Below, piece after piece: positions 9,069 to 28,603 of a stretch of 53,063 bases of DNA (positions within the stretch are counted from its first letter, which is position 1; the number at the start of each line of letters is the position of its first letter). The position numbers and the translations under genes are program-made. This DNA is from Candidatus Nanopelagicales bacterium (GTDB lineage Bacteria > Actinomycetota > Actinomycetes > S36-B12 > UBA5976). The notes below the pieces were generated by a model. That model saw only the letters and a program-made list of their open reading frames with translations, did not search any database and was not told where the DNA came from. Location: the NCBI GenBank assembly GCA_044341215.1, contig JBIISC010000005.1, forward strand, positions 1-53,063. Direction: 5' to 3'.

Positions 9069-11234
<2,166 letters not shown>

Positions 11235-11849: not shown

Positions 11850-13181
11850 ATGAAAATTAAGTATTCAGTGAGTAAAAGCGACAAATTCGACCAGATGCGC
11901 GCTGGCGCTGTTTATCAGATATTCCCAGACCGCTTTGCACGTGACGAATCTGTCACTGCAGATCGCGAGTTAGTCAATTGGGATTCTGCGCCAACTCCAC
12001 AAAACTTCTTTGGTGGCAACCTAAAAGGTATCACCAGCAGACTTGAATACATCGCCGATCTTGGGATTAAAAATATTTACTTCAATCCAATTTTCAGTGC
12101 CCACTCGAATCACCGCTATGACGCTCATGACTACATGAAGATTGACCCACTTCTCGGAACAGAACAAGACTTTCGTGATTTAGTTTCCAAAGCAAAGTCA
12201 CTCGGCATGGGAGTGATCATCGATGGAGTTTTCAATCACGTGGGAGACCACTACCCAGATTTCGTAGCTGCGATGCATGGAGACAAGAAAAAAGCCGAAC
12301 AGTTCTTTATCTATCCAGATGGCTCATACCAAACATTTGGCAGCGCACAGTCTTTGCCAAAGCTAAATCTTGAAAACAAACACGTCTTAAAGCACATCGC
12401 AAAGGTGATGGAGCATTGGGACAAGTTTGGGATTGCTGGTTGGCGTTTCGATGTGCCTTATAAAGTGGATAACTCAGTTTGGAAGAAACTTCGCAAGCTC
12501 ACTAAACATGTTCCATCAGCACAATTCATTGTTGCTGAAGCCTGGACTGACTGGACTTTTGCCGAGCATTTCGAGTCTGTGCAAAACTATAAAACCGGAA
12601 ATCGAATCCTTGATTACACAGTTCACATGCGCTGTGACTCCGAAGACTTTATTCTTGATGTGACTCGCTATGCCGAGGCTTGGAAAGATGGAAGCTTGCT
12701 CTGGAACTTCATTGACAGCCATGACACCACTCGCTACTTAACCCAATGCAAACATGATTACGAGGCTTTCTTAATTGGCTTCGCCTTAAACATCTTGATG
12801 CCAGGAATTCCAATAATCTATTACGGAACAGAACTTGCAACGCCAGGGGAGAATGATCCAGGTTGCCGCACTTCGTTTCCTAAGGAACTAAATCATGAGC
12901 AATCCATAACTCACTCATTTACCCGAGATTGGATTCGGATGCGTCAGATTCCAGCCTTGAGCCATGGAAACCTTGAAGTACAAGAGTTAAAGAATCATGC
13001 AATGGTTTTCACTCGCAAACAGGGCAAGTCCAAAATTGAAGTTTTGGTCAACACCGGCCATCGCGAAGAGCTATTAAAAGTTGACATCAATGGGAGTTGG
13101 AAAACCGTTCGCCATGAAGATTTTGAGATTTCAGGAAACCGCGTTCCACAGCGAATCCTGCTTTACCGAGTCTCAGACTAG
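11850..13181 (+). CDS. GH13 alpha-amylase family glycosidase (neopullulanase/cyclomaltodextrinase-like)
   Basis: YQIFPDRF, GGNLKGI, HRYD and DGVFNH motifs, plus catalytic WRFDV, AEAW and SHD. Confidence 0.9.
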   Translation: MKIKYSVSKSDKFDQMRAGAVYQIFPDRFARDESVTADRELVNWDSAPTPQNFFGGNLKGITSRLEYIADLGIKNIYFNPIFSAHSNHRYDAHDYMKIDPLLGTEQDFRDLVSKAKSLGMGVIIDGVFNHVGDHYPDFVAAMHGDKKKAEQFFIYPDGSYQTFGSAQSLPKLNLENKHVLKHIAKVMEHWDKFGIAGWRFDVPYKVDNSVWKKLRKLTKHVPSAQFIVAEAWTDWTFAEHFESVQNYKTGNRILDYTVHMRCDSEDFILDVTRYAEAWKDGSLLWNFIDSHDTTRYLTQCKHDYEAFLIGFALNILMPGIPIIYYGTELATPGENDPGCRTSFPKELNHEQSITHSFTRDWIRMRQIPALSHGNLEVQELKNHAMVFTRKQGKSKIEVLVNTGHREELLKVDINGSWKTVRHEDFEISGNRVPQRILLYRVSD

Positions 13182-13196
13182 TTGTAAAATTAAAAG

Positions 13197-14357
13197 ATGA
13201 CCCAGCGAGTGCTACCCCCTGAAGTGGAAAACAAGCTACGTCAAAGTTCGAAGTCAGTTGCTCAAGTGATTCGAACTACTCGGGGGCTTTCTTTTAGCCG
13301 CTTACCAGCTTGGACTTATGAACAGTTCCAACCAAACTCAAGCATTGCAAAAATGGCAGAGCGACTTTCTGGCGCTAGGTTTGAAATTGAAACTACTGCA
13401 ACTGAAATCTCGTTTCAGTATCGTTCCCTTCGAGATAGCGCACCCGCGTTTAATTGGATCGCTGGTCCATCAACTATTTCGCTGACTACGGACGGCTATG
13501 AAGAAAGCATTTCACATTCGAATGGAGACTTAAGAATCTGGAATGGTGATCAAGTTCAGGAAATCGTTAAAGGAGAAGACTCAATTGCTAGTTTCACTTT
13601 GCCAAAAACTTCCACGCCGCGCATTGTTCAAATCTGGCTTCCACAAAATTGCCCAATTGAAGTTATAGATCTCAAAGCCAATGCCGAATGGATTCCAGCT
13701 CCGGTTTCGAATAAGCCAAAGTGGGTGCACTACGGAAGTTCTATTAGCCATTGCGAAGATGCTGCATCACCAATCGGAGTTTGGCCGGTTGCAGTAGCAA
13801 GACAACTTGGTCTTGATGTTTATAACTTAGGTTTGAGTGGGTGTGCAAATCTGGAACAGTTTGCCGCTAGGACTATTCGTGATTTACCGGCAGATCTAGT
13901 TAGCCTCAAAGTTGGCATCAACATTGTCAATGGCGCAAACCACACTGCCACAACTTTCGCACCTGCAGTTCACGGTTTCTTAGACACAATTCGCGACGGC
14001 CATCCAACCGCGAAAATCCTTGTGATTTCACCAATATGTTGCCCTGCACACGAAAACAATCCTGGCCCTTCTTCAACCAATGCAGATGGAATGATTCAAG
14101 GACAGGAGTTCAGCAAGGACCATGCCTGGATTGGCGAGCTCACATTGAGTTCAATTCGCACAATCTTGAGTGAAATCGTCAGAAAACGTTTTGAATCCGA
14201 TCCAAACATCTTTTATCTTGACGGATTAAAACTATTCAATGAAGTCGAAGCCCAAAGCCTTCCCGATGGAATTCACCCGGACGCTGACGGCTATTTGAAA
14301 ATTGCTGAAAATTTCGTTGCAAACTATCCAAGAGATTGGATTGCAACAAAACTATAA
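13197..14357 (+). CDS. SGNH/GDSL hydrolase
   Basis: Blocks YGSSISH, NLGLSG, VGIN and DGIHP. Confidence 0.85.
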   Translation: MTQRVLPPEVENKLRQSSKSVAQVIRTTRGLSFSRLPAWTYEQFQPNSSIAKMAERLSGARFEIETTATEISFQYRSLRDSAPAFNWIAGPSTISLTTDGYEESISHSNGDLRIWNGDQVQEIVKGEDSIASFTLPKTSTPRIVQIWLPQNCPIEVIDLKANAEWIPAPVSNKPKWVHYGSSISHCEDAASPIGVWPVAVARQLGLDVYNLGLSGCANLEQFAARTIRDLPADLVSLKVGINIVNGANHTATTFAPAVHGFLDTIRDGHPTAKILVISPICCPAHENNPGPSSTNADGMIQGQEFSKDHAWIGELTLSSIRTILSEIVRKRFESDPNIFYLDGLKLFNEVEAQSLPDGIHPDADGYLKIAENFVANYPRDWIATKL

Positions 14358-14437: not shown

Positions 14438-15415
14438 TTAGTAGCTTGTAAGTTCGGTTGCAGCGTGCACAATCTTGTCCACGGAAGGCAACCAAGCGTT
14501 TTCGAGGTTTGCTGCGTATGGAACTGGAGTACTTGGAGAACTAATAAGTCTTGGTGGTGCATCGAATAGAGACCAAGAATCACTCATAGTTCGAGCAATT
14601 AGGTCAGAACCCCAAGAACCTCCTGCAGGTCCTTCTTGAACGACAAGTAGCCGGCTGGTTTTGGACAAACTTTCTCTGATAGTTGCATCGTCGAAGGGAA
14701 CTAATGTGCGTGGGTCGATCACTTCAACTGATATACCGCGAGAGTTCAAGATTTCGGCAGCTTCCACCGCACGATGACGCATTAGTTGGGTGGCAACAAT
14801 TGTGAGGTCGGTTCCGCGAGTTACAACCTGTGCAACTCCTAGAGGGATGCGTTCGTTTGAGATATCGCCTTTAACGTTGAACAAGCCTTTATGTTCAAAA
14901 ACTAGCACTGGATTGTCGTCCACAATTGCTGAGCGCAATAAACCATACATATCGTTTGGGGTTGCAGGTGTGACAATTTTTAGACCCGGAATATTTAGAA
15001 ACCAATTCTCAGCACTTTGGGAATGTTGGGCCGCAAAGCCACCACCAACACCGTTAGCAAGTCGGACTGTCACTGGAAGTTTGTATTGACCAGCAGACAT
15101 GTAGCGATACTTTGCAAGTTGGTTTGCAATCTGATCGAATGTCACACCAGCAAAGTCTGCAAACATTAATTCTGCGATTGGACGAAGACCTTGGATAGAA
15201 CTACCGATTGCAGCGCCGATAATTGCTTGTTCTGAAATAGGAGTATCTAGAACTCGCTGAGGACCAAATTCGTCAAACAATCCAAGCGATGTTTTGAAAA
15301 CTCCACCAGCGGCACCAACATCTTCACCAAGCAAGATGATGTTTGGGTCAAGACGCATTTCGGCGGCGATGGCGGCTGGAATGGACTTTCGAAAATTCAT
15401 CTGTTCTTCGGCCAT
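14438..15415 (-). CDS. ThDP-dependent dehydrogenase E1 beta subunit (acetoin/pyruvate dehydrogenase-like)
   Basis: GEDVG, DTPISEQ, ELMFADF, AQHSQ, FEHK and VIDPRTLVP motifs. Start placed at ATG 15415 just after the alpha-subunit stop. Confidence 0.9.
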   Translation of the reverse strand: MAEEQMNFRKSIPAAIAAEMRLDPNIILLGEDVGAAGGVFKTSLGLFDEFGPQRVLDTPISEQAIIGAAIGSSIQGLRPIAELMFADFAGVTFDQIANQLAKYRYMSAGQYKLPVTVRLANGVGGGFAAQHSQSAENWFLNIPGLKIVTPATPNDMYGLLRSAIVDDNPVLVFEHKGLFNVKGDISNERIPLGVAQVVTRGTDLTIVATQLMRHRAVEAAEILNSRGISVEVIDPRTLVPFDDATIRESLSKTSRLLVVQEGPAGGSWGSDLIARTMSDSWSLFDAPPRLISSPSTPVPYAANLENAWLPSVDKIVHAATELTSY

Positions 15416-15417
15416 GA

Positions 15418-16431
15418 TTAATCCATCACATCCGTGTAAAGCTCTGATAAATCTGGTTCTGGCCAAGACACTGCTCGATTTTTTGCTTCACTAACTTCAA
15501 TGCGAGCATTTTCTTTGATACGTTCAATTGTTTGTGCACCGTCAGGATTGAATTCTTTTATTGCGTTTTCGAGTAGCAGAATTGGGTCTCGTTTCATCCA
15601 CTCATCAAGTTCGCCTTCTGGCCGGTATGCAGCGAGGTCTGCTCGAGAATGTCCTGAGTGACGGTAGGTGACTGCTTCAATAAGAGTGGGTCCGTCACCG
15701 CGACGTGCACGATCAGCAGCATCGGCGACGATAGCGCTCATTGACACTACGTCATTTCCATCAACTTGAACACCATACATCGCATAGCCAAGTGCGCGAT
15801 CAACAATCTTCTCACCGCTGGTGGTGGACTTGACGGGACTGTATTCGCCATACTGATTATTTTCGACAACGAAAATAACAGGTAGTTTCCACAAGGATGC
15901 AAGATTCAACGATTCATGGAATGCACCGATATTTGTTGCGCCATCACCAAAAAAACAAACCGAAACTTTTCCGGTTCCTAAGAACTTAGCTGCAAGTGCC
16001 GCGCCATTAGCAATCGGAAGATGTCCACCGACAATTGCATTAGAACCCAATGCACCGATGCTTGCATCAGTGAAATGCATCGAGCCACCTTTGCCATTAC
16101 ATAGTCCGCCAGCGCGACCTAGTAGTTCGGCAAAACATGCATCGATTTGTGCACCTTTGGCGATAGTCGCACCGTGACTTCGATATGTGCAGGTCATTGT
16201 GTCATCTGAGCGAAGAGCACTTATTGCACCAACTGAAACAGCTTCTTGTCCTTGATAAAGATGGGTACTGCCTCGAACGAGTCCAGCTAAATATAGATCT
16301 TGAACTTCGTCTTCAAAGAATCGAATTTCATACATTTTTTTCAAGACATTTTCGAAGTCGTTTGGCAATTGCTGCTTCAACGTAGGTACTTCGCGAGATT
16401 CCCATGCGACGTATGGGTGTGTGATATTCAT
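15418..16431 (-). CDS. ThDP-dependent dehydrogenase E1 alpha subunit
   Basis: HLYQGQEA, YRSH, GKGGSMH, ThDP motif GDGATN...ENN, and YRHSGHS. Confidence 0.9.
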   Translation of the reverse strand: MNITHPYVAWESREVPTLKQQLPNDFENVLKKMYEIRFFEDEVQDLYLAGLVRGSTHLYQGQEAVSVGAISALRSDDTMTCTYRSHGATIAKGAQIDACFAELLGRAGGLCNGKGGSMHFTDASIGALGSNAIVGGHLPIANGAALAAKFLGTGKVSVCFFGDGATNIGAFHESLNLASLWKLPVIFVVENNQYGEYSPVKSTTSGEKIVDRALGYAMYGVQVDGNDVVSMSAIVADAADRARRGDGPTLIEAVTYRHSGHSRADLAAYRPEGELDEWMKRDPILLLENAIKEFNPDGAQTIERIKENARIEVSEAKNRAVSWPEPDLSELYTDVMD

Positions 16432-16437
16432 GATGCC

Positions 16438-17541
16438 CTATTGAACTCTATATTGCTTAATGAAATCTTCATTGAGTTGCCAACCAAGGCCTGGATTCTC
16501 ACTTAGCTGTATGTGACCGTCAACTAGAGCTGGCCTGTTGGCAATGAGGTTCCACCAAACTGGATCTCGGTCTGGGTGGAAACACTCAGCGTAAGTTCCA
16601 TGAGATTGGCTAGCAATTAGGTGGCTAGAAACTTGAGGTTCTTCGTGATGTGCCATTTGCACTTCAAAGGTTTTGGCCATTGCAGCGACCCGCAGCCATG
16701 CAGTCGGTCCTCCTGACCAAGATGCGTCGAAGTTGCACACGTCAACTGAGTTTGCTTCAAATAAATCTCGGCAACCACCTGGGCTAAATTCTGATTGGCC
16801 GGCACAAATTGGGATGGAAGAAGAATTTCGGACGCGGGCCATTGACTTTCGATCGTTCTGCCACTGCACTGGTTCTTCAAACCAACGAAGATTTAATTCT
16901 TTGGTCAGTCCAGCAAATTCCACTGCATCTTGTACTGACCAACCTTGATTGGCATCAACTGCAATTGCGAAATCATCACCGGCCGCTTCGCGTGCTATTC
17001 GCACTCTTTGTGCATCATCAGCGGGTGATTTACCGCCGACTTTAAATTTAATTCCTGCAACTCCCATTTGCTTATATTCTGCAATTTCATCCGCAATTTT
17101 TTCGTTAGGGGTGTGGTAGTAACCACCGATTACGATCATTGGAATCTTTGAGCGATATCCACCCCATAGTCTCCAAAGTGGCTCGCCAAGATATTTCCCG
17201 TACAGATCCCATAGTGCAGCATCGACCCCGGCAAGGGCTACCAATCCGATTCGACGGTCCCGCAAGATGTTGAATGTGGCTGGGTAGGAGGTTTCCCAGC
17301 AGGCATTGATGTTTCGAGGATCCTTGCCGATCAGTCCTGGTTCGATTTCTTGGTGGACGACCTGCTCGATTTCCCCCAGAGATTTATCTTCGTCACCCGC
17401 GTAGGCCTCGCCAACAAGACCATCATCGGTATGAATGCGGGTGATAACGGTTGCTCGGTGGGTCATGCGGTAATAGCTGCCCCGGTACTCACGAGCCAGT
17501 GGCGCTATCAGCGGGACGGTCTCAATGCGGACGATTTTCAT
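16438..17541 (-). CDS. Enolase-superfamily enzyme, mandelate racemase subgroup (probable acid-sugar dehydratase/racemase)
   Basis: DAALWDL, KFK, VDANQGW, WFEEP, AGQSE, NFD, AHH and PGLG motifs. Confidence 0.88.
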   Translation of the reverse strand: MKIVRIETVPLIAPLAREYRGSYYRMTHRATVITRIHTDDGLVGEAYAGDEDKSLGEIEQVVHQEIEPGLIGKDPRNINACWETSYPATFNILRDRRIGLVALAGVDAALWDLYGKYLGEPLWRLWGGYRSKIPMIVIGGYYHTPNEKIADEIAEYKQMGVAGIKFKVGGKSPADDAQRVRIAREAAGDDFAIAVDANQGWSVQDAVEFAGLTKELNLRWFEEPVQWQNDRKSMARVRNSSSIPICAGQSEFSPGGCRDLFEANSVDVCNFDASWSGGPTAWLRVAAMAKTFEVQMAHHEEPQVSSHLIASQSHGTYAECFHPDRDPVWWNLIANRPALVDGHIQLSENPGLGWQLNEDFIKQYRVQ

Positions 17542-17560
17542 TGTCTCAACCTTCTCTCGC

Positions 17561-17574
17561 TGGAAACGTTTCTA
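17561..17574. promoter_or_regulatory. LacI-type operator O1 (TGGAAACGTTTCTA)
   Basis: Near-perfect 14-bp CG-centred palindrome at the predicted transcription start of the leftward operon. Recurs at 17683 and 26127. Confidence 0.75.
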
Positions 17575-17580
17575 TGAGTA

Positions 17581-17609
17581 AGGATAGACTTCCTTGAAGC
17601 GCTGGTCAA
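17581..17609 (-). promoter_or_regulatory. Sigma70-type promoter for the leftward enolase-E1 operon
   Basis: Minus strand TTGACC (17609-17604), 17-bp spacer, TATCCT (17586-17581). Confidence 0.7.
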
Positions 17610-17682
17610 GAGAAAATCAAGAGAAGAAATGTGCTTGAGATACTTGACAGGAGGAGATTTCAAGGACGAGAGTTAGCCTTAC

Positions 17683-17696
17683 TGGAAACCATTCCA
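17683..17696. promoter_or_regulatory. LacI-type operator O2 (TGGAAACCATTCCA)
   Basis: Variant of the same palindrome just downstream of TAGCCT and upstream of the ABC binding-protein gene. An extra half-site ATTCCA follows. Confidence 0.65.
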
Positions 17697-17745
17697 GAAT
17701 GATTCCAAACTCGGCAGAAGCGCCGTGGGAGGGGAGCCCGGATAA

Positions 17746-19053
17746 ATGAAGCGAATTCTCGCGATTGCCACAGCTGCATTACTCACCATGGTTGCAGTTG
17801 CTGGTTGTAGTTCAAGTGATGAGGCCAGTAAGCCAGTCAAACTGGTGATGTGGTGGTGGGGCGATCAAGAAGCGCCTGGAGCTAAAGATTGGTTGGATGC
17901 AACAGTTAAAGCATATGAAGATGCAAATCCAAATGTCACCATTGAAACTGTCTTACAAACAACAGATGGTTTAATTCCTGCATTCCAGGCAGCAGCAGCT
18001 GCTAAAAGTGGTCCTGATCTTCAGTACTTCTGGGGCGGAATTTATTCACAGCAACCTGGCTGGGATGGCGCTATCACGCCAATTTCAGATTTGATTCCTG
18101 CTGAAGAGTTGAGCCATTACATCAACGCTGATGTTGAGTTGTCTTATCAAGGAAAAGTTTGGACAGCTCCTTGGTATGTAAACCCTTCATTCCCATTGCT
18201 AGTTCGTAATGACATCTTGTCGAAGTACAACCTAGAAACTCCAGTTACATGGGACGATTTCCTAAACACATGTGATGTTTTGAGTGCTAAAGGTGTTACC
18301 ACTATTGCTGGTGGCGTTAAAGATGGTTGGTTCGGTGGTTGGTTGTATTCAATCCTCGGAGCACAATCTCTAACTTCTCAAAAAGATGTAATCGAAGCAG
18401 TTATCGGCAATCAAAAGTTCACTGATGCAAAACATGCTGACTGGTGGACACGTTTGCAAGAATCTAAGGATCACAATTGCTGGAACGATGACATTAACTC
18501 ACTAGAGCTTTACCAAGCTCAGCAACGTTGGGTTGATGGCAAATCAGCAATGACAGTCGTCGCAGGACCAGATGCACCGAACTTTGTTGGAAAAGTTGGC
18601 GCTGACAAGGTCACTGTTATGGCAATGCCAAAGTGGGCAGATGGGCCGAATGCAGGCAAAATGGGAAGTACATCCCAGACAATTGGTGTTACTTCTTGGA
18701 GTAAGAATCAAGCCGAAGCTGCTAAGTTCATCATGTTTACACACGAAGCTGCTCAATTGCAGTCTTGGTATGACATGACTGGTGCTATGCCAGCTGACGA
18801 TCGATTCGATATTTCTGCAGTGACTGATCCGGTTCGTAAGAACCTCTTCACAATCACCATGAATGGAGCTCCATACTTGGAAAACTTCATTCCAGCTCAA
18901 CTTGATTCAGATGCCGTATTTACAAACGTGCAGTTAGTTCTTAAGGGCACAATTACTGGCCCAGAAGCAGCAGCTGCAATGCAGGCAACAATTGAGAAGC
19001 TAAGAAAAACTGATCGCGCCCTGGTGGATAATTTCACCAATTGGGGTAAGTGA
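17746..19053 (+). CDS. Carbohydrate ABC transporter substrate-binding lipoprotein (CUT1 type)
   Basis: Lipobox VAGC, YEDANPNVTIE, SBP family 1 layout, GGAGGGGAG RBS. Confidence 0.9.
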   Translation: MKRILAIATAALLTMVAVAGCSSSDEASKPVKLVMWWWGDQEAPGAKDWLDATVKAYEDANPNVTIETVLQTTDGLIPAFQAAAAAKSGPDLQYFWGGIYSQQPGWDGAITPISDLIPAEELSHYINADVELSYQGKVWTAPWYVNPSFPLLVRNDILSKYNLETPVTWDDFLNTCDVLSAKGVTTIAGGVKDGWFGGWLYSILGAQSLTSQKDVIEAVIGNQKFTDAKHADWWTRLQESKDHNCWNDDINSLELYQAQQRWVDGKSAMTVVAGPDAPNFVGKVGADKVTVMAMPKWADGPNAGKMGSTSQTIGVTSWSKNQAEAAKFIMFTHEAAQLQSWYDMTGAMPADDRFDISAVTDPVRKNLFTITMNGAPYLENFIPAQLDSDAVFTNVQLVLKGTITGPEAAAAMQATIEKLRKTDRALVDNFTNWGK

Positions 19054-19078
19054 TCTAAGTGATTAGTGCGAGTGCGTT

Positions 19079-19981
19079 GTGGCAGTAAATGAGCTTTCGC
19101 TCATGAAGCGTCGCCGCGCACTCGCACTAGGTCACCTCCCGTGGGTGTTACCTGCAGCCGTTGTCATTGTATTTGTTTTCGGTTATTCGGTTTTTGCACT
19201 ATTTGAGCAATCGTTTAAATATAAAGATCAGTGGGTTGGATTTGAAAACTTCGACCTAGTTTTAGGTGATTCACTTTTTCGAACTGCCATCTGGCACAAC
19301 ACATTACTTTTAGCGGCGGTGCCAGTACTTGTCGCACTTGGCACAGCATTAGCTCTAGCACTTTTCGAAGTTCGCAACTTTGTGGGACTTTATAGAACCG
19401 CAATTTTCCTTCCCTATATTTTGCCAATTCCAGTTGTTGGCGTTGTCTTTGGTCAGCTACTTCAATTCAACGGCGCACTGAACTCAGCACTTCGTGCGCT
19501 CAATCTTCCGGGATTCGCACTTGATTGGTTGGGTGACCCACAGTTGTCACTTCCAACAATGGGTGCAATCATTATTTGGAAAGAAGTGGGATTCGGCGCA
19601 ATATTGATTTTGGCACGTTTAATGTCTCTTCCATATGAACTTTTCGAAGCTGCACGCATTGATGGTTGCAATTTTTGGCAGATGACCCGTCGAGTGACAA
19701 TTCCGCAGCTAAAAACTGTGCTTGTTTTCTACTTCATTAACGAAGCCATCGTGATGGTTTCCTGGGTTTTCAACTATGTCTACGTGATGACAAATGGCCA
19801 AGGTGGGCCAGGCGACTCAACGTTTGTTTCAGAGCTTTATATCTACCGAGAAGCATTCCAAAACCAAGCCCCTGAACTAGCAGCAGCAGCCGCAGTTATG
19901 TTGCTGGTTGCTACATCAGTATTTATCGTTGGACTATTTACGATGCAGCGGAAAATGAGCAAGGGAATGTTTAATGACTGA
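19079..19981 (+). CDS. Carbohydrate ABC permease (MalF-like)
   Basis: WVGFENF, WLGDP and EAARIDG loop. Start uncertain. Confidence 0.9.
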   Translation: MAVNELSLMKRRRALALGHLPWVLPAAVVIVFVFGYSVFALFEQSFKYKDQWVGFENFDLVLGDSLFRTAIWHNTLLLAAVPVLVALGTALALALFEVRNFVGLYRTAIFLPYILPIPVVGVVFGQLLQFNGALNSALRALNLPGFALDWLGDPQLSLPTMGAIIIWKEVGFGAILILARLMSLPYELFEAARIDGCNFWQMTRRVTIPQLKTVLVFYFINEAIVMVSWVFNYVYVMTNGQGGPGDSTFVSELYIYREAFQNQAPELAAAAAVMLLVATSVFIVGLFTMQRKMSKGMFND

Positions 19982-20813
19982 CAAACCAGCTCAAGATCGT
20001 TCTATTGCTATCTCGAGTCAATTGATATTGACCCTTGGGGCTGCAATGGCTTTAGCACCCGGTTACTTGATGATTACAGGTTCGCTGAAAACTCAAGCTG
20101 ATTTTCTAGCAAGTCCATGGTCACTTCCTACAAATATTTCTTTTGCGGGATATCAAAATGCCCTTACTGATCAATTTCCGCGTTGGTTTTTAAACACAAT
20201 TATTGTTGCCGGATTATCGGTTGCTCTAACAGGTTTACTTGCAGCAACTGCAGCCTGGGGATTTGTGAATTGGAAGTGGCGCGGTCGCGAAACTATTCTG
20301 GGACTATTGGTTTCGCTAATGGTTGTGCCACCAGTTGTTTTGCTAATTCCGTTATTTCAACTTGGTGCAAAAATCGGATTGATTTCCACCTATCAATTGT
20401 TGATTGCAGTTTATGTTGGTCTGACTTTGCCGTTTTCAATCTATCTACTTGCTAATTTCTTTAGAACGATTCCAGTAAGTCTGCTTGAAGCCGCACAAAT
20501 AGATGGGGCATCGCCACTTCGATCTTTCGTATCGGTAGTTCTGCCGCTATCAGGTCCACCAATAATTACCGTGGTGGTAGTTAACTTGCTCTGGGCATGG
20601 AATGAATTGTTACTGGCTCTGGTCTTTATGCAACAAGATGATTTAAAAACTTTAATGATCGGAATAACTGGATTCCAAAGTCGTTATTCGCTTGATATCC
20701 CAACTGTGATGGCCGGACTTACGATTGCTACAACGCCGTTGGTGCTGGTTTACATTTTTGGTCAGCGCTACTTTATGGCTGGCCTAACTGCCGGCGCTGT
20801 TAAAGGAGAATGA
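19974..20813 (+). CDS. Carbohydrate ABC permease (MalG-like)
   Basis: EAAQIDGA, WNE and QRYFMAGLTAGAVKG motifs. Confidence 0.9.
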   Translation: MTDKPAQDRSIAISSQLILTLGAAMALAPGYLMITGSLKTQADFLASPWSLPTNISFAGYQNALTDQFPRWFLNTIIVAGLSVALTGLLAATAAWGFVNWKWRGRETILGLLVSLMVVPPVVLLIPLFQLGAKIGLISTYQLLIAVYVGLTLPFSIYLLANFFRTIPVSLLEAAQIDGASPLRSFVSVVLPLSGPPIITVVVVNLLWAWNELLLALVFMQQDDLKTLMIGITGFQSRYSLDIPTVMAGLTIATTPLVLVYIFGQRYFMAGLTAGAVKGE

Positions 20814-20817
20814 GATA

Positions 20818-21093
20818 GTGGAGTTTTTGGTAAAGATACAAGTATTTACACCTGAGACGATGGAAGCCGATCAACTTTTGAGTTTGATAAGTGCTGAACG
20901 AGCTCGCGGTAAGGAACTAAAGGATGCTGGAACTATTGCACGTATCTGGCGAATTCCTGGTACCAAAAACAATGTTGGAGTATGGAATGCTGCTGATGCA
21001 TCTGAACTCCATGCTGCAATTTCATCATTACCACTCTTTGCCTATATGAATGTAGAAGTCACACCACTCGCAACCCACCCACTTGAGAGCTAA
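20818..21093 (+). CDS. Muconolactone delta-isomerase family protein
   Basis: 91 aa. MEFLV, E-x-x-R-x-x-EL, IWRIPG, LPLFAYMNVEVTPLATHP is the typical CatC pattern. Confidence 0.85.
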   Translation: MEFLVKIQVFTPETMEADQLLSLISAERARGKELKDAGTIARIWRIPGTKNNVGVWNAADASELHAAISSLPLFAYMNVEVTPLATHPLES

Positions 21094-21105
21094 GAGGAGC
21101 TTGAA

Positions 21106-21888
21106 ATGAAACTCAAAGACCGCGTTGGAATTGTCACGGGAGGCGCGAAAGGACTTGGAAAAGCAATTGCCGAGGAACTTATGAAAGAAGGCGCATCGAT
21201 TGCAATTTTCGATCTCAATTTAGATGAGGCTCAGGCAACTGCTAAGGAACTTTCTAAGTTTGGTACTGCCCGCGCATATCGATGCGATGTTTCAAATTCA
21301 AAGGAAGTCGACGATGCATTCGCGCAAGTTGTGGCTGATTTTGGAAAACTAGATTTGCTGGTCAACAATGCAGGTGTTTCTTTTGTCGGACCACACATCA
21401 AAGACGTCACAGACGAAGTTTGGGCTACAAGCATTGGCGTGATGCAGACTGGAGTTTTTTACTGCATGCGGGCAGCGACTAAATACATGCTTGAGCAGCG
21501 CTCTGGTTCAGTTGTAAACATCTCATCAATTCGTGGTTACAGCTCAAACCCTGGCCGGATTGCATATTGCTCTTCAAAGGCTGCAGTAATCATGATGAGT
21601 CAAGTAGCAGCAGCTGAGTGGGCTCCTTACGGCGTTCGATGTAACTCGATCGCACCAGGTGTGCAGCGCACCCCAATGTGGGATGCAGATGTAAAGCTCG
21701 GTGTAGTTGATGAAGAGCGCGTATTGCGGGTTACTCCTGCCGGACGATTAGGCGAACCAAGCGAAGTTGGTCGTTTGGCAGTTTTCCTTTGCAGTGATGA
21801 TTCCGAATTCATAAATGGCGCATGCATCTCTATTGACGGTGGTCTAACAAGTGTTCCTATCGATGGAATTGTGACCCGACCATCATGA
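21106..21888 (+). CDS. Classical SDR oxidoreductase
   Basis: TGGAKGLG, NNAG, YCSSK and IDGG motifs. Confidence 0.9.
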   Translation: MKLKDRVGIVTGGAKGLGKAIAEELMKEGASIAIFDLNLDEAQATAKELSKFGTARAYRCDVSNSKEVDDAFAQVVADFGKLDLLVNNAGVSFVGPHIKDVTDEVWATSIGVMQTGVFYCMRAATKYMLEQRSGSVVNISSIRGYSSNPGRIAYCSSKAAVIMMSQVAAAEWAPYGVRCNSIAPGVQRTPMWDADVKLGVVDEERVLRVTPAGRLGEPSEVGRLAVFLCSDDSEFINGACISIDGGLTSVPIDGIVTRPS

Positions 21889-22958
21889 GCAGAGAAGTCA
21901 AAGTTGCGGCAATAGCCGGCGACGGAATTGGCAAGGAAGTTCTGCCGCCAAGTTTGGCATTGGTCGAAGCCGCTGCAAAAGTTTCAGACCTCTCTATCAC
22001 TTGGGATCTAATTGACTGGAGTTCAGACACCTTTTTGAAAACTGGTAAATACATTCCTGAAGGCGGTATGGAAAGACTGATGGCCTGCGACGCAATTTAT
22101 TTTGGTGCAGTCGGAGATCCTCGGGTTGCAGATCATGAATCTTTATGGGGATTACTGCTCTCGATGCGGCAAAACTTTCAGCAGAATGTAAATGTCCGAC
22201 CAATAAAGCGGCTGCCAGTACCAAGCCCATTAGCTTCACCTTTAGATTTTGACATACTGTTGGTGCGCGAAAATGTTGAAGGCGAATACACGCCAATCGG
22301 TGGACAGATGCGTTTAACAGGTGGCAATCAAGTTGCAATGCAGGTTTCAGTGTTTAGTAAATTCGCAACCGAAGCAGTTGCCCATTACGCATTCCAACAA
22401 GCACGTTTGCGTAAATCAAGTGTGTGTGCTGCCACGAAATCAAATGCGCTTGCACATTCAATGACTTTTTGGGAAGACGTGATCCGCGAAGTTGCTACCC
22501 AATACCCAGATGTGTCACTCAGGTTCTCGCACATAGATGCATTAGCAGCCGAATTTATTCTGCGTCCATGGAATCTTGATGTGGTGGTCGGGTCTAATCT
22601 CTTTGCAGACGTATTGGCAGATATTGGCGCTGCAATAATGGGAAGTATTGGCGTTGCTGCTTCTGGAAATATCAATCCCGAGCGTTCCATGCCTTCGCTT
22701 TTTGAACCAGTACATGGTTCAGCGCCAGACATCGTTAATCGTGGAATCGCAAATCCAACTGGTCAGCTTCTAACAGCAGCAATGATGTTAGATCACTTAG
22801 GTGCACCGGAAGGCGCAGAATTGTTGCGAAGTTCCGTTGTGCAGACTCTTGCCAATCCGAAATTTCATACTGGGGATGTTGGAGGCACTGCAACAACATC
22901 AGAAGTTTTTGCTGAAGTTGCCCGGCGCATGGCTCCCTTAACGGTTTCTTCTGTTTGA
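21885..22958 (+). CDS. Tartrate dehydrogenase/decarboxylase-like beta-decarboxylating dehydrogenase
   Basis: GDGIGKEV, SLWGLL, RENVEGEY, ATKSN, NLFADVLAD and FEPVHGSAPDI motifs. Confidence 0.85.
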   Translation: MSREVKVAAIAGDGIGKEVLPPSLALVEAAAKVSDLSITWDLIDWSSDTFLKTGKYIPEGGMERLMACDAIYFGAVGDPRVADHESLWGLLLSMRQNFQQNVNVRPIKRLPVPSPLASPLDFDILLVRENVEGEYTPIGGQMRLTGGNQVAMQVSVFSKFATEAVAHYAFQQARLRKSSVCAATKSNALAHSMTFWEDVIREVATQYPDVSLRFSHIDALAAEFILRPWNLDVVVGSNLFADVLADIGAAIMGSIGVAASGNINPERSMPSLFEPVHGSAPDIVNRGIANPTGQLLTAAMMLDHLGAPEGAELLRSSVVQTLANPKFHTGDVGGTATTSEVFAEVARRMAPLTVSSV

Positions 22959-22970
22959 TACGGGCCACTT

Positions 22971-23867
22971 GTGACTATATTGACATTAGGTGCTGGGGAA
23001 CTAACTGCGGAAATTAATGCTGCCAACGGTGGGGTTATTCAAAGTCTTCGTTGTGGTGGAAAAGAAATGCTTGCGCAGATGCCGTGGAAGCAGGAACCCC
23101 CAATTGCCACAGATGTTGAAGCCGAATGGCTGAAATCCTGGGCTGGAGGCTGGCAGTTACTTGTTCCGAATGCCGGATCTGCATCTTTGATTGCTAAACC
23201 TCATCAAGGATTTCATGGAAATGCTTCAGTGCAAGAATGGAAACTTGTCAGTCATACTGATACTGCTTGCATTATTGAATGGCAAGAAGCAGATCTGAAG
23301 GTCACACGTGAGATTCATGTTGAATCGCAAAAGGTCTCGGCACGAACAACTCTTACAAACCTTGGCCAAATAAAACTTCCATACATCGCAACCGAACACT
23401 GCATACTTGGTGAAACTTCATTGGCATTTCCAGCAACTTTGAGTTCGGCTAGTGGAGTCACAGTGGAAGAACTGGGCTATGACGGTGGGAAGATGGGTTC
23501 GGCTAAACAATCTTTAAGTGAAAGCGGCCTTGCTTCGATTGAAGGCACGCCAACCGCAAAACTTTATTCCTGCAGCAACGTTGATGAAAATGGTTTTCAA
23601 TTTGAGACTGCATCACACCGACTATCTATGACGTGGGATGTTGAGAGCTTGCCATATATGTGGCTCTGGCTTGAATTGAATTCAACGTTGGATGCCCCTT
23701 GGAATGGGCGAGTTAAGGCAGTTGGACTTGAGCCATCAAATGCCGATCACGGCTTAGGTCTTGACGAGTGCCTGAACAAACAAAACGCACAATACTTACC
23801 AGCCGGGCAAACGGTTGAATGGTGGATTACCCTAAACATATACGAAAAAGGAGCAAGCAATGTCTGA
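22971..23867 (+). CDS. Galactose-mutarotase-like (aldose epimerase fold) protein
   Basis: GGWQLLVPNAG, FHG, EH, PYMWLW and GLEP segments resemble the mutarotase superfamily. Confidence 0.65.
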   Translation: MTILTLGAGELTAEINAANGGVIQSLRCGGKEMLAQMPWKQEPPIATDVEAEWLKSWAGGWQLLVPNAGSASLIAKPHQGFHGNASVQEWKLVSHTDTACIIEWQEADLKVTREIHVESQKVSARTTLTNLGQIKLPYIATEHCILGETSLAFPATLSSASGVTVEELGYDGGKMGSAKQSLSESGLASIEGTPTAKLYSCSNVDENGFQFETASHRLSMTWDVESLPYMWLWLELNSTLDAPWNGRVKAVGLEPSNADHGLGLDECLNKQNAQYLPAGQTVEWWITLNIYEKGASNV

Positions 23868-24351
23868 CATCTACGCAGTGCAACACGTGGGGTTAACTGT
23901 AAGTAATTTAGAACGTTCAGTTAAGTTCTATCGAGATGTTCTTGGATGCAAGGAATTATTCACTCAGGAAAAAGCTGGTGGATACCTTGCGGCAATTGTT
24001 GGCTACCCAGATGCAAGTGTGAAGATGACTCACCTGAGCGATCCAGCTGGCCGACTAGTCATAGAGCTCTTTGAATATGTACATCCTGAAATGTTGGAGA
24101 TAAAACTTGAACCACGCCGAATAGGAAATGCTCACCTTTGTTTCTTAGTAAAAAATCTGCAAGCTGTCTATAAACGAATTAGCGATGTCCACTCAGATTT
24201 CTTTTCCGAACCAGTAATTGTTGACACCGGCGCTAACAAAGGTGGCGCTGGTCTATATCTGCGTGACCCGGATGGAATTACAATCGAACTATTCGAGCCA
24301 GCCCCTGGCACCGCAGCACATCAATTGATGGAGTCAACAAAAAATGATTAG
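23860..24351 (+). CDS. VOC (glyoxalase/bleomycin resistance/dioxygenase) family protein
   Basis: HVGLTVSNLERSVKFY, IELFEY, HLCF and RDPDGITIEL. The H/E/H/E metal ligands are present. Confidence 0.88.
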   Translation: MSDIYAVQHVGLTVSNLERSVKFYRDVLGCKELFTQEKAGGYLAAIVGYPDASVKMTHLSDPAGRLVIELFEYVHPEMLEIKLEPRRIGNAHLCFLVKNLQAVYKRISDVHSDFFSEPVIVDTGANKGGAGLYLRDPDGITIELFEPAPGTAAHQLMESTKND

Positions 24352-25084
24352 TTTTGAAGGAAAAGTTGCAGTAGTCACAGGTGGCGCAAATGGCATCGGT
24401 GCAGCAGTAGCAAAAGTACTTGCCGACAATGGCGCTTTAGTTGCAGTGTTCGATCTGGAAAGCATCAACGATTCTCGCCATAAAGCGTATGAAATTGATC
24501 TCTCAGATCAATCCGCATTGGAAATTGCGGCCAAGAAAGTTATTGCAGACCTTGGACATGTAGACATTTTGATAAACGTGGCCGGAATGTGTCCAACAAA
24601 TATGTTGTTAGATCTTGACGTTCGGCTCTATGAAAAAACTTTGGCAGTGAACTTGCTCGCGCCAATGCTTTTAATGAAGTTCTTTGGCGCAGACATGGCA
24701 AAGCGCAAAACTGGAAGAATTGTGAATGTAACCAGTATCCATGGAAAGCTAAGTGAGCCAGGTGCTGCTGCATATGACGCGAGCAAGGGTGGACTGGAAG
24801 CAGTAACTAGAACTGCAGCACTTGAACTTGCCGACTTAGGAATTCTTGTCAATGGTGTTGCTCCTGGATTTGTAAATACCCGAATGTCAGTCGTGAATGG
24901 TGTCTCAGAACTCGAATCAGAGTGGTTTAAAAACATTTACCAAGAAAATGCCCGACTACCACTAAAACGTGCATCTGAACCATCAGAAATTGCAAACGCC
25001 GTTGCCTGGCTTGCTAGCGAAGCAAATACATATGTGACTGGACAAATCCTTACTGTTGATGGCGGATTGTCTTCACGTTTTTAA
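24344..25084 (+). CDS. Classical SDR oxidoreductase
   Basis: TGGANGIG, NVAG, YDASK and VDGG motifs. Confidence 0.9.
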   Translation: MISFEGKVAVVTGGANGIGAAVAKVLADNGALVAVFDLESINDSRHKAYEIDLSDQSALEIAAKKVIADLGHVDILINVAGMCPTNMLLDLDVRLYEKTLAVNLLAPMLLMKFFGADMAKRKTGRIVNVTSIHGKLSEPGAAAYDASKGGLEAVTRTAALELADLGILVNGVAPGFVNTRMSVVNGVSELESEWFKNIYQENARLPLKRASEPSEIANAVAWLASEANTYVTGQILTVDGGLSSRF

Positions 25085-26092
25085 CTATTTTTTAGGTGCT
25101 GCGCAGCTTTCGCCAATAGCAAAACTTGTCGGAAGAATTATGGTTCTAGGTTCCGCGCCATTGATCTGCTCTAGTAAAAGTTCGGCAGCTTTTTCGCCAA
25201 CATTCATTGCATCTCGTGTCACCCGAGCAAGTGGTGGGTCAATGAATTCCGCCAGTGGCAAGTCATCGCAAGTAACAAGTGAAACATCTGTTGGAACTTT
25301 TAGTTTCAATTCCCGCAATGCGCGCAATACGCCAACCAAAATTTGATTGCCGCCAACGAAAATTGCTGTGGGCGGGTTCGGTTCGCGCATAATCTTCAAC
25401 GTTGTGTCATAACCGTGAATTTCTGAGTATCCACCCGGAATTAGTGTGACTTTTACATCAGGGTTGGATTTAGCTGCTGCCTTGAGAGCAAGTGCACGTT
25501 CGCGCGAAGGTCGCACGCGCGGCGCACCACTGATCAAAACAATCCGTCTATGTCCGAGATTAATCAGGTGTTGTGCTGCCGGCATCACACCACTTGCGTG
25601 ATCGTGAAGTACTGCGCCAGCTGGAATGTCGGCAGGTAACTCTCTATCAATCAAAACAATTGGTTTTTTGTAAGCACGTAACATTTCAAGAGTTCTAGGA
25701 TTTTCTTCATCAGTAATCGAAAGGATAAGTCCGTCCACCCGTCGGGACGCGAAGTGTTTTATGTAATCGGCATCGAGTTCAGGGTTTCCTTGGCTGTTGC
25801 TGATTAGTAGTGAATAGCCAGACTTACTTAGTTCGTTTTCTGCTCCAACAGAGTTAGTTGCAATTACTGGATTTGAAACGTTGATCGCAACAAAGCCAAT
25901 TGATTGGGTAGCGCCGGTGCGCATACTCATAGCTAGTAAATCTCGTTCATATCCCAAAGCTGCTACAGCGTCCAGAACACGGTTACGCATAACTTCGCTT
26001 ACATCCGGCGAATCGGTGAGAACTCGAGATACCGAGGAAATGGCAACGCCAGCCCTTTTGGCCACCTCGCGCATACCCACTTTTTCGTTCAT
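25085..26092 (-). CDS. LacI-family transcriptional regulator
   Basis: N-terminal HTH MREVAKRAGVAISSVSRVL, periplasmic-binding-like effector domain, C-terminal ESC. Confidence 0.95.
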   Translation of the reverse strand: MNEKVGMREVAKRAGVAISSVSRVLTDSPDVSEVMRNRVLDAVAALGYERDLLAMSMRTGATQSIGFVAINVSNPVIATNSVGAENELSKSGYSLLISNSQGNPELDADYIKHFASRRVDGLILSITDEENPRTLEMLRAYKKPIVLIDRELPADIPAGAVLHDHASGVMPAAQHLINLGHRRIVLISGAPRVRPSRERALALKAAAKSNPDVKVTLIPGGYSEIHGYDTTLKIMREPNPPTAIFVGGNQILVGVLRALRELKLKVPTDVSLVTCDDLPLAEFIDPPLARVTRDAMNVGEKAAELLLEQINGAEPRTIILPTSFAIGESCAAPKK

Positions 26093-26126
26093 AAAACCTC
26101 ACAAGTTCTGGGCTAAGTGTATTTAC

Positions 26127-26140
26127 TGGGAGCGTTTCCA
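26127..26140. promoter_or_regulatory. LacI-type operator O3 (TGGGAGCGTTTCCA)
   Basis: Same palindrome family, located in the divergent lacI/lactonase intergenic region. Confidence 0.7.
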
Positions 26141-26203
26141 AAAGCCCTTACAAGAGGCATAATGGGGCTATTAGCGCTCATTTGAGACCCAGATAGGTGG
26201 ACC

Positions 26204-27016
26204 ATGGCATCAACGCCTGAAATCGTTCTCAGTGGCTTTGCCTTCCCCGAATCCCTGAGATGGCATAACCAGCAACTTTGGTTCAGCGACGTGTTAACTG
26301 GAGAAGTCCATCGCTCATCCTTAAATGGAAATACCGAGATTGTGACTCATATTTCACCAACAGTTTCTGGCTTGGGATGGTTGCCATCTGGTGAGTTATT
26401 GGTTGTCGACTGCGAAGCCCAGCAACTCTTGAGAATCTCACCAACCGGTGAAAAACATTTACATGCTGATCTTTCTTCCCACTGGAAATTCCCCGCGAAT
26501 GACATGTTGGTAGACGATGATGGTACGGCTTGGGTTGGTAGTTATGGATTTAATCCCGAAACTGATGCGCCGGTCCCTTCTTCGATGTTAAAAGTTTCAA
26601 ACACTGGCGAAGTAATTGGTGAAGTGCCTGATCTGGTTTTCCCAAATGGAGCTGGACGAATTGATGCAAACCACTTCATTGTGTCGGAAACTTTTGCTGG
26701 TCGTTTAGCGATTGTAAATACTGAAGGAAAACCGAAAGTAATTCGAAGGATTGAATTACCAGACGGAAGTACACCGGATGGGTTAGCAGTCAAAGACGAT
26801 GGAAGTGTGTGGGTGGCCTTGGCTTATTCGGAATGTGTAGTTCGAATAGATTTAGAAACTGGCAAATCCGAACGAGCTATCGAACTTCCAGGAATTGGGG
26901 TTTATGACTGCACGTTTATCGATTCCAACACTTTGCTAATCGCAACTAGCGACAAAGATGAATCACATGTTGTTGAAGATAGACCTGGAAAGATTCTTAA
27001 GGTAAACCTCGGCTAA
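26204..27016 (+). CDS. SMP-30/gluconolactonase family protein
   Basis: FPESLRWH...LWFSD, ANDM, FPNG and PDGL metal-binding motifs. Confidence 0.88.
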   Translation: MASTPEIVLSGFAFPESLRWHNQQLWFSDVLTGEVHRSSLNGNTEIVTHISPTVSGLGWLPSGELLVVDCEAQQLLRISPTGEKHLHADLSSHWKFPANDMLVDDDGTAWVGSYGFNPETDAPVPSSMLKVSNTGEVIGEVPDLVFPNGAGRIDANHFIVSETFAGRLAIVNTEGKPKVIRRIELPDGSTPDGLAVKDDGSVWVALAYSECVVRIDLETGKSERAIELPGIGVYDCTFIDSNTLLIATSDKDESHVVEDRPGKILKVNLG

Positions 27017-28388: not shown

Positions 28389-28464
<76 letters not shown>

Positions 28465-28491
28465 GAGAGGACGGAGAATAGCAGGGAGTCT

Positions 28492-28525
28492 AAAAAGTAA
28501 AGCGGCACATCTCTGTACCGCTTTA
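28492..28525 (-). terminator. Intrinsic terminator-like hairpin after tRNA-His
   Basis: TAAAGCGG / CCGCTTTA arms followed by a T-run on the minus strand. Confidence 0.55.
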
Positions 28526-28526
28526 G

Positions 28527-28603
28527 TGGGGTGAGTGACGGGACTTGAACCCGCGACATCCTGGACCACAACCAGGTGTTCTACCAGCTGAACTACACCC
28601 ACC
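28527..28603 (-). tRNA. tRNA-His (GTG)
   Basis: Reverse complement GGTGGGTGTAGTTCAGCTGGTAGAACACCTGGTTGTGGTCCAGGATGTCGCGGGTTCAAGTCCCGTCACTCACCCCA, with G-1 and CCA encoded. Confidence 0.97.

Follow-up and report, generated by a model that had tools for sequence, protein, structure and literature searches.

In the non-phosphorylative routes for L-rhamnose and L-fucose, a sugar dehydrogenase, a lactonase, an enolase-family dehydratase and a second short-chain dehydrogenase (SDR) prepare the substrate, and an FAH hydrolase or an aldolase then ends the pathway. The oxidative D-galacturonate route of Agrobacterium employs a uronate dehydrogenase, a lactone isomerase, the galactarolactone cycloisomerase (Gci), KdgD and a semialdehyde dehydrogenase, and engineered butanetriol-type pathways use foreign keto-acid decarboxylases. 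The diketo-hydrolase and aldolase routes for L-rhamnose and L-fucose, as well as Routes I–III for pentoses, are covered in the consulted part of Watanabe et al. (2019, PMC6336799). Here we describe a set of 14 open reading frames (ORFs) at positions 14438–27016 of a 53,063-nt window, that is, the whole stretch of DNA that was analyzed. The window is contig C22 of the 82-contig, 1.28-Mb, 91% complete genome of a lake actinobacterium (G000; in what follows, G labels denote sampled genomes and L labels fetched neighborhoods). The 14 genes probably constitute a LacI-regulated set for sugar import and oxidation without phosphorylation, in which an enzyme dependent on thiamine diphosphate (ThDP) takes the place of the aldolase or hydrolase. 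The cluster is real, conserved and uncharacterized, and it represents a form of oxidative non-phosphorylative sugar catabolism whose lower half differs from that of the known routes.

An earlier reading made from the sequence only had listed 14 genes in four transcription units, and the ORF list, Pfam and NCBIfam bear out the coordinates and the families; the spacing, −49 to +25 nt within units, is consistent with the four units. On the minus strand lie the genes for the beta subunit of a ThDP-dependent 2-oxoacid dehydrogenase E1 (14438–15466; Transket_pyr 141 bits, Transketolase_C 105 bits), for E1 alpha (15418–16431; E1_dh 254 bits) and for a member of the mandelate-racemase (MR) subgroup of the enolase superfamily, a probable acid-sugar dehydratase (16438–17541; MR_MLE_N/C). 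Divergently, on the plus strand, follow the genes for a CUT1-type ABC solute-binding protein (SBP; 17746–19053; SBP_bac_1), ABC permeases 1 and 2 (19079–19981 and 19974–20813; both BPD_transp_1), a 91-aa protein of the muconolactone-isomerase family (MIase; 20818–21093; Pfam MIase 105 bits), the short-chain dehydrogenase SDR1 (21106–21888; adh_short_C2 216 bits), a beta-decarboxylating dehydrogenase resembling tartrate/D-malate dehydrogenase (TDH-like; 21885–22958; Iso_dh 257 bits), a 298-aa protein with a predicted aldose-1-epimerase fold, distantly related to DUF4432 (22971–23867; AlphaFold model and Foldseek), a single-domain, glyoxalase-fold VOC protein (23860–24351; Glyoxalase 48.8 bits) and SDR2, a candidate sugar 1-dehydrogenase (24344–25084; adh_short_C2 174 bits); both SDRs are of the classical type. 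A LacI-family repressor is encoded on the minus strand (25085–26092; LacI HTH and Peripla_BP_3), and a lactonase of the SMP-30/gluconolactonase family (SGL, 98.7 bits) on the plus strand (26204–27016). As had been claimed, Pfam and NCBIfam reveal no kinase, aldolase, FAH or dioxygenase family among the 14 genes, and the upper half (dehydrogenase, lactonase, enolase-family dehydratase) agrees with the logic of the known oxidative routes. No ABC ATPase is found by family among these ORFs.

The gene set co-occurs in other taxa. In L238, from a GC-69% actinomycete genome of another family, 10 non-transport genes are present at 37–73% identity and in the same sub-operons. The order there is SDR2 (55%), SGL (37%), an SDR, a second SGL (41%), E1 beta (63%), E1 alpha (61%), enolase (61%), LacI (66%), MIase (58%), SDR1 (73%), TDH-like (51%) and VOC (65%), after which come a MalK ATPase and a different CUT1 system; the MIase-SDR1-TDH-VOC order is identical in the two loci. 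L238 is the decisive locus, and by this comparison of sequences the gene set is not a chance neighborhood. A near-identical version of the whole cluster, with 14 of 14 proteins 87–99% identical (best tblastn matches), is carried by a contig of a lake Actinomycetota metagenome-assembled genome (MAG; L002); L002 and G589:C121 are probably one contig and were counted as one relative. Partial co-occurrence was seen in L055, L056, L004 and L210. In L055, enolase, E1 alpha, E1 beta, SDR2, SDR1 (54%) and VOC (52%) are found at 50–66% identity up to the contig end. L004 (Solirubrobacterales) has VOC-E1 alpha-E1 beta at 59–60% identity (VOC 59%, adjoining E1) beside a DUF4432 gene, and its sister loci have VOC and SDR1 at 53–58% (SDR1 in Solirubrobacterales loci, 56–58%). 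L210 (G339:C10:54501-74500) contains an operon of E1 alpha, E1 beta, MIase (53%, adjoining E1 beta) and an enolase (25%), with a divergent gene for a full lipoyl-E2, and may represent a CoA-dependent cousin of the pathway. Its other neighbors are a CoA-transferase III, an acyl-CoA dehydrogenase, an HpcH/citrate-lyase-like lyase, a GH1 gene and a sulfatase.

The most regular feature of the related loci is the association of enolase and E1. In the window, a gap of 6 nt separates the enolase gene from the E1 alpha gene of the same operon. Up to 20 kb was fetched around each enolase match, and L057 and L059 were left out because they offer too little sequence on the side in question. Nine of nine independent genomes with enough flank (G429, G512, G537, G449, G494, G532, G698, G658 and G779) have an E1 alpha/beta pair no more than 10 kb from an enolase orthologue (at least 57% identity). 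The pair directly adjoins the enolase in L048, L050, L053, L054, L055 and L238, and in L056 one bona fide DUF4432 gene (49 bits) intervenes between the enolase and E1 alpha genes; in G658 and G779, E1 adjoins an enolase paralogue of 50–54% identity that is 8–11 kb from the 57–62% copy. Because of this repeated tight pairing, the enolase and E1 are read as consecutive steps. This is the simplest reading, since the 2-keto-3-deoxy acids produced by enolase-family acid-sugar dehydratases belong to the 2-keto acids, on which E1 enzymes act. Taken by itself, E1 alpha is a poor anchor: matches occur in 83 of 401 genomes (G000 included), mostly in ordinary E1 operons, and of the 16 loci that were fetched, none but L209, L210 and L212 gave useful information. 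E1 alpha contains the ThDP motif GDG...NN at residues 162–192 (read from the sequence), and its nearest solved structures in a PDB sequence search are mitochondrial-type pyruvate dehydrogenase (PDH) E1 alpha subunits (201 bits). E1 beta scores 322.6 bits on the NCBIfam PDH E1 beta subfamily (cut-off 321); its listed TTG start gives a 49-nt overlap with E1 alpha, and the true start may be later.

Sugar-related genes surround the pair in variant loci such as L054 (G449:C53:44001-64000), where enolase-E1 beta-E1 alpha is found with Amidohydro_2, GFO_IDH_MocA and a CUT2 sugar ABC system, and in the L126-type cassettes, which unite SGL, SDR, CUT1, DUF4432 and enolases. The TDH-like copy of G449 (44% identity) shares the L054 locus with enolase-E1, and PrpD-like, P450, EamA and AMP-binding genes are also present there.

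The word CTGGAAACGTTTCCAG, with up to 3 mismatches, has 4 matches in the 53-kb window versus 0.36 expected, a count attained in 0 of 100 shuffles. Three of the matches are the predicted LacI-type operators O1 (CTGGAAACGTTTCTAT, 17560–17575, on the enolase-operon side), O2 (CTGGAAACCATTCCAG, 17682–17697, on the transporter-operon side) and O3 (CTGGGAGCGTTTCCAA, 26126–26141, between lacI and the lactonase gene). The three related operators of the earlier reading are thus located in both divergent intergenic regions, enolase/SBP and lacI/lactonase. In L238, the same word has 2 matches versus 0.03 expected, in the enolase/LacI and SDR2/SGL intergenic regions. With an HTH and a sugar-binding domain in the repressor and palindromic predicted operators at the putatively regulated promoters, the locus has the makings of a LacI-family regulon. 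The fourth match, at 10750, is attributed to chance and lies inside a gene for a KatG-like catalase-peroxidase with two peroxidase domains (9069–11225).

The enolase has K165-x-K167, D196, E222, D272 and H298/H299 (read from the sequence); KxK, the Asp/Glu metal ligands and His-Asp form what we take to be the mandelate-racemase-subgroup pattern, with presumed residue roles. All named NCBIfam equivalogs score far below their cut-offs (L-rhamnonate dehydratase, 107 vs. 393 bits), the best named relatives being arabinonate dehydratase (180 bits) and L-talarate/galactarate dehydratase (176 bits); the muconate cycloisomerase model gives 102 bits (cut-off 335). The PDB entries 3MSY, 4H83 and 3NO1 (one protein) match with 564 bits over residues 2–366, compared with 137 bits for 2PP0 and 120 bits for Gci of A. 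tumefaciens (4GGB), and this protein and the enolase probably belong to one orthogroup, judging from the scores. The titles of the three entries carry the family name only ("mandelate racemase/muconate lactonizing enzyme") and no function. They are presumably structural-genomics entries from a marine actinobacterium. A literature search by the three codes returned, among the matches listed, only unrelated ones. Orthologues at E 1e-80 or better were detected in 1 of 400 other genomes of the phylum sample and in 8 of 200 of the order sample, and at E 1e-120 or better in 4 of 400 of the class sample (one also in the order sample); a large protein collection yielded at least 4082 matches at E 1e-100 or better, and homologues of 64–65% identity are listed there for the culturable Pseudonocardia acaciae, Tessaracoccus sp. 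MC1865 and Asanoa siamensis. On these counts the orthogroup is sparse yet widespread. Within the genus, one of three other genomes has the enolase, so that its presence is patchy. Five genomes have two enolase paralogues, 49–62% identical to that of the window and 8–37 kb apart (L048/L049, L050/L051, L052/L053, L234 and L236); most of these copies have a LacI gene of their own, and this points to a family of related regulons. At the paralogues that lack E1 (L049, L051 and L052), only LacI, SDRs or neither are retained.

The label "mutarotase-like" had been given to the 298-aa protein, which has no Pfam match at default settings and DUF4432 alone at E 0.019. Its AlphaFold model (pLDDT 82.6) agrees with the label: in a Foldseek comparison with the PDB, all top matches are aldose 1-epimerases (E 1e-17 to 1e-10, TM 0.64–0.72; 3NRE, E 9.8e-17), and its ESM Atlas neighbors are DUF4432 and aldose-epimerase clusters. 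A mutarotase (aldose 1-epimerase) fold is therefore supported for the predicted structure. H82, H143, D223 and E254 are invariant in a 9-sequence alignment and, by order and spacing rather than by superposition, may correspond to H96, H170, D243 and E304 of GalM. A collection of 5.8 billion proteins contains 8 relatives, some of them at 40–44% identity, and those in the genome and metagenome contig scans do not exceed 35% identity, the near-identical lake MAG aside. A commoner, distant cassette of SDR, SBP, permeases, DUF4432 and enolases was found in 40 of 80 metagenome loci with at least three family matches, and 34–38% relatives of SDR2 occur within such cassettes. From this distribution, the epimerase-fold protein and SDR2 look to be part of a generic "sugar oxidation" upper module.

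The sequences of the remaining proteins say less about the substrate. The best solved relatives of the SBP in a PDB search are sugar/oligosaccharide binders, at 78 bits or less. Of the other PDB sequence searches, those with SDR1 and SDR2 gave generic SDR matches only, that with the lactonase gave none and that with VOC none close; none of these searches, the one with the SBP included, names a substrate. MIase, the sole one in the genome, scores 82.9 bits on the muconolactone delta-isomerase equivalog TIGR03221 of NCBIfam, below the cut-off of 130.6. The TDH-like protein deserves no more specific name, since it reaches 415 bits on the equivalog NF006048 (cut-off 501) and 413.2 on TIGR02089 (cut-off 470.4), with 304 bits to PDB 3FLK. 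As the third Iso_dh paralogue of the genome, its gene appears to be dedicated to the cluster.

The families of the genes, their catalytic motifs, the operator sites and the conservation across genomes were observed; every reaction that follows, and the substrate, we infer from them. We put forward, at about even confidence, a LacI-repressed regulon for the uptake and kinase-free oxidative breakdown of a sugar or sugar acid, with the steps in this order. The CUT1 ABC system would import the substrate with an ATPase encoded elsewhere, the epimerase-fold protein would equilibrate its ring forms, SDR2 would oxidize C1 to yield a lactone, and the SMP-30 lactonase would open it. The MR-type enolase would then dehydrate the acid sugar to a 2-keto-3-deoxy acid, and E1 alpha/beta, from the same operon, would decarboxylate this acid, either oxidatively on a borrowed lipoyl-E2/E3, giving an acyl-CoA one carbon shorter, or non-oxidatively, giving an aldehyde. 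Finally, the MIase-SDR1-TDH-like-VOC operon would turn the shortened product into central metabolites. The substrate of a TDH-family enzyme must be a 2-hydroxy acid that carries a beta-carboxyl group, which points to a dicarboxylate such as D-malate; in one coherent ending, a D-malate-like dicarboxylate would be oxidatively decarboxylated to pyruvate by the TDH-like enzyme. D-malate would arise if the substrate of E1 were a 2-keto-3-deoxy-pentarate, which is chemical reasoning and not evidence. Gene content, upper-half logic and conservation thus speak for the oxidative route that the sequence-only reading had suggested, and its chemistry, its substrate and the parts assigned in it to the MIase-like protein, the TDH-like protein and E1 are conjecture. 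More tentatively still, and with doubt prevailing, we suggest that E1-type ThDP decarboxylation of a 2-keto-3-deoxy sugar acid, together with an MIase-fold/SDR/TDH-like/VOC quartet performing reactions new for these families, is an undescribed ending in Actinomycetota, with the 3MSY enolase family as the entry enzyme.

Several observations weigh against the proposed regulon and route. The closest characterized relatives of E1 are pyruvate E1s, and E1 could act on another keto compound. Two E1 lineages accompany the enolase, one at 61–66% identity in alpha-beta order and one at 41–52%, mostly in beta-alpha order. The cluster, L238 and most variants yielded no E2 or E3 gene (E3 was not searched for). 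The operator word was not found in L055, and the DUF4432 gene is missing from L238. Homologues of the TDH-like protein (44–50% identity) stand without other cluster genes in seven of the eight fetched loci, and in the remaining locus, L168, just SDR1 and VOC are matched, and weakly (32–33%). The functions assigned to the MIase-like and VOC proteins are conjectural. With seven of eight loci lacking any other cluster gene, the TDH-like gene was rejected as a tracer of the cluster.

Regarding the E2, the genome encodes a two-lipoyl-domain E2 on C6, a Kgd-type fusion on C72 and an E2 on C33, and in L210 the full lipoyl-E2 adjoins the E1 alpha-E1 beta-MIase-enolase operon. It is possible that E1 borrows an E2, giving an acyl-CoA, or that it acts as a stand-alone decarboxylase or lyase. 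The E2 on C33 belongs to a second 2-oxoacid dehydrogenase operon (G000:C33:11915-13375; L228), which is cut by the contig end and adjoined by a SorC-type regulator; it comprises a C-terminal fragment of E1 beta (37% identical to E1 beta of the cluster) and a 386-aa E2 with lipoyl and E3-binding domains. The notion that the E1 of the cluster is the only alpha/beta E1 of the genome was rejected on account of this E1 beta fragment and E2.

One alternative, which we regard as unlikely but worth keeping in view, takes the substrate to be a uronic acid or a sugar oxidized at both ends. SDR2 would then resemble a uronate dehydrogenase, the MIase-like protein would isomerize an aldarolactone, the enolase would be an aldarate dehydratase or a lactone cycloisomerase, E1 would convert a 2-keto-3-deoxy-aldarate to a malyl-type product (for a pentarate, the intermediate would be 4-hydroxy-2-oxoglutarate), and the TDH-like enzyme would convert D-malate to pyruvate. 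L-talarate/galactarate dehydratase is indeed among the nearest named relatives of the enolase (176 bits, and 137 to 2PP0), and homologues bear the automatic JGI name "D-galactarolactone cycloisomerase". Against the scheme, Gci of A. tumefaciens reaches only 120 bits. The need of TDH-family enzymes for a 2-hydroxy-dicarboxylate, which is family knowledge, suits this scheme, as do L210, which joins E1/E2 with CoA-transferase III and an HpcH/malyl-CoA-lyase-like gene, and L234, where CoA_transf_3 adjoins E1 beta; however, the L210 enolase is only 25% identical to that of the window. The epimerase-fold protein, LacI and CUT1 would suit a neutral sugar equally, and the literature search found no natural source of a pentarate.

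Another alternative, which seems to us improbable rather than far-fetched, is that E1 alpha/beta is an acetoin-dehydrogenase-like ThDP lyase. SDR1 and VOC would first turn the 2-keto-3-deoxy acid into an alpha-hydroxyketone or diketone, which E1 would then cleave; such C-C cleavage was proposed in the sequence-only reading and differs from direct decarboxylation of the enolase product. SDR1, VOC and E1 occur together at 53–61% identity in the Solirubrobacterales loci L004, L006, L007, L009 and L013, where the enolases are only 25–28% identical, SDR1 scores 189–196 bits on acetoin reductase/butanediol dehydrogenase models (below their cut-offs), and the cluster is devoid of an E2. On the other hand, the 6-nt spacing of enolase and E1 alpha in one operon, their adjacency in 7 genomes and the best E1 scores, which are on pyruvate dehydrogenase E1 models, favor the decarboxylation of the enolase product by E1.

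An ordinary L-fucose/L-rhamnose/pentose-type route, with its terminal hydrolase or aldolase elsewhere and with E1, TDH-like and MIase as passengers, is very unlikely. Its upper-pathway families do agree, and one FAH gene and one DHDPS-family gene (C50) exist elsewhere in the genome, but that sole FAH gene sits in a housekeeping context, between leuA-like and gltX genes and near genes for an IclR regulator and an aconitase-family protein, and in L238, E1, MIase, TDH-like and VOC accompany the enolase and the operator word is shared. A non-sugar substrate, that is, a lactone or ring-cleavage product of aromatic or humic matter degraded via a muconolactone-isomerase and cycloisomerase-like pair, would account for the Pfam MIase match and for the enolase-superfamily gene adjoining MIase in L210 but is scarcely credible given the MR-type KxK and His-Asp pattern of the enolase, the lack of an intradiol dioxygenase (Dioxygenase_C) in the 91%-complete genome, and the context of CUT1 transporter, LacI, epimerase fold and SMP-30 lactonase.

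The description of the locus as a self-contained island did not hold. The ABC ATPase and E2/E3 must come from elsewhere, and a GDSL esterase outside the limits of the cluster recurs near related clusters; nor is there a compositional signal, the GC content of the cluster being 0.45–0.48 versus 0.42–0.48 in the rest of the window. The esterase (13197–14357, plus strand, 386 aa; Pfam Lipase_GDSL_2/3) is a possible accessory part, and its homologues are found at 36–37% identity near related clusters in L234, L012 and L014. Together with a GH13 alpha-amylase-family gene (443 aa), it occupies 11850–14357, directly left of E1 beta, and these neighbors may hint at an acetylated or glycosidic precursor. 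To the right of the cluster come one gene of the UbiA family and one with DUF998 and then, at a distance of 1.4 kb, tRNA-Lys(ctt) and tRNA-His(gtg) (28389–28602); in two congeners without the cluster, only the tRNA and RNase T flank DNA matched. Further accessory genes unusual for a 1.28-Mb genome are a UbiA-family prenyltransferase adjoining an FAD_binding_4 oxidase (1882–4061) and a sulfotransferase with a cytochrome P450 (31152–34341).

DNA similar to the cluster (at least half of the sampled words) was present in 19 lake-water metagenome runs, five of which may be the source of the window DNA. In three DNA runs from different studies, contigs cover 30 of 30 bins and bridge the gene junctions, one of the runs representing a strain with many differences. 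One RNA library yielded a 978-nt contig over the SBP gene (17910–18887, 25 differences). The contigs from this metatranscriptome run fall on the SBP gene and on 23187–23361 only, and DNA can be present in such libraries; they hint only weakly at expression, and nothing is concluded from the parts without coverage.

If the proposed ending is correct, natural ThDP decarboxylation would be a fourth kind of ending for non-phosphorylative sugar routes and a parallel to the engineered butanetriol-type pathways. The conserved enolase-E1 pairing provides a concrete, testable reaction sequence, and for the large enolase orthogroup, a crystal structure is available to which no function is attached. The regulon takes up about 1% of a streamlined 1.28-Mb genome, and a variant of it is retained in another small genome, that of G779 (1.35 Mb). 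Since small genomes keep it, the substrate is probably a relevant part of freshwater dissolved organic matter.

Altogether, the gene set does not conform to any of four known systems: the L-rhamnose/L-fucose routes, the beta-ketoadipate pathway, a complete 2-oxoacid dehydrogenase complex and the Agrobacterium uronate route. Of the beta-ketoadipate pathway, the Pfam MIase family is present, the MIase and muconate cycloisomerase scores are low, and Dioxygenase_C is lacking. E1 resembles the heterotetrameric E1 of the pyruvate, branched-chain 2-oxoacid and acetoin dehydrogenases in having an E1_dh alpha subunit with the ThDP motif and a transketolase-like beta subunit. It differs in that no E2/E3 adjoins it (there is no 2-oxoacid_dh in the cluster or in L238, hence no cognate E2), in scoring below the equivalog cut-offs (345.6 vs. 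393.85) and in having an enolase as its neighbor in a sugar regulon. With the Agrobacterium route, the cluster would share oxidation by an SDR to a lactone, isomerization of the lactone, an enolase-superfamily enzyme and a decarboxylation past the 2-keto-3-deoxy acid. However, the Agrobacterium isomerase is an amidohydrolase, whereas that of the cluster would be an MIase-fold protein, and decarboxylation is performed there by a DHDPS-family enzyme and here, as proposed, by a ThDP-dependent E1; the cluster has no DHDPS-family gene, and its enolase is much closer to 3MSY (564 bits) than to 4GGB (120 bits).

As the sequence-only reading had supposed, our literature search found no described pathway onto which the gene set maps; the search left subscription journals mostly uncovered and did not include supplements, so that absence from print is unproven. 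The L-threonate 3-dehydrogenase route (Watanabe, 2026, PMC12994016) was considered as a match and rejected, because, in the consulted part of that study, it is kinase-dependent and does not map onto the cluster. Compared with the non-phosphorylative routes as set out in the consulted part of Watanabe et al. (2019, PMC6336799), the cluster shares a candidate sugar 1-dehydrogenase, a putative lactonase, a candidate enolase-superfamily dehydratase, a second SDR and the lack of a kinase. The SDR and SGL families required for dehydrogenase and lactonase are present, and their specificity is not readable from sequence. A terminal hydrolase or 2-keto-3-deoxy acid aldolase is absent from the 14 genes, and so are, relative to the same source, the FAH hydrolase, the second dehydratase and the semialdehyde dehydrogenase. 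What the cluster has of its own, in comparison with the routes described there, is E1 alpha/beta, co-operonic with the enolase, and the MIase-like, TDH-like and VOC proteins.

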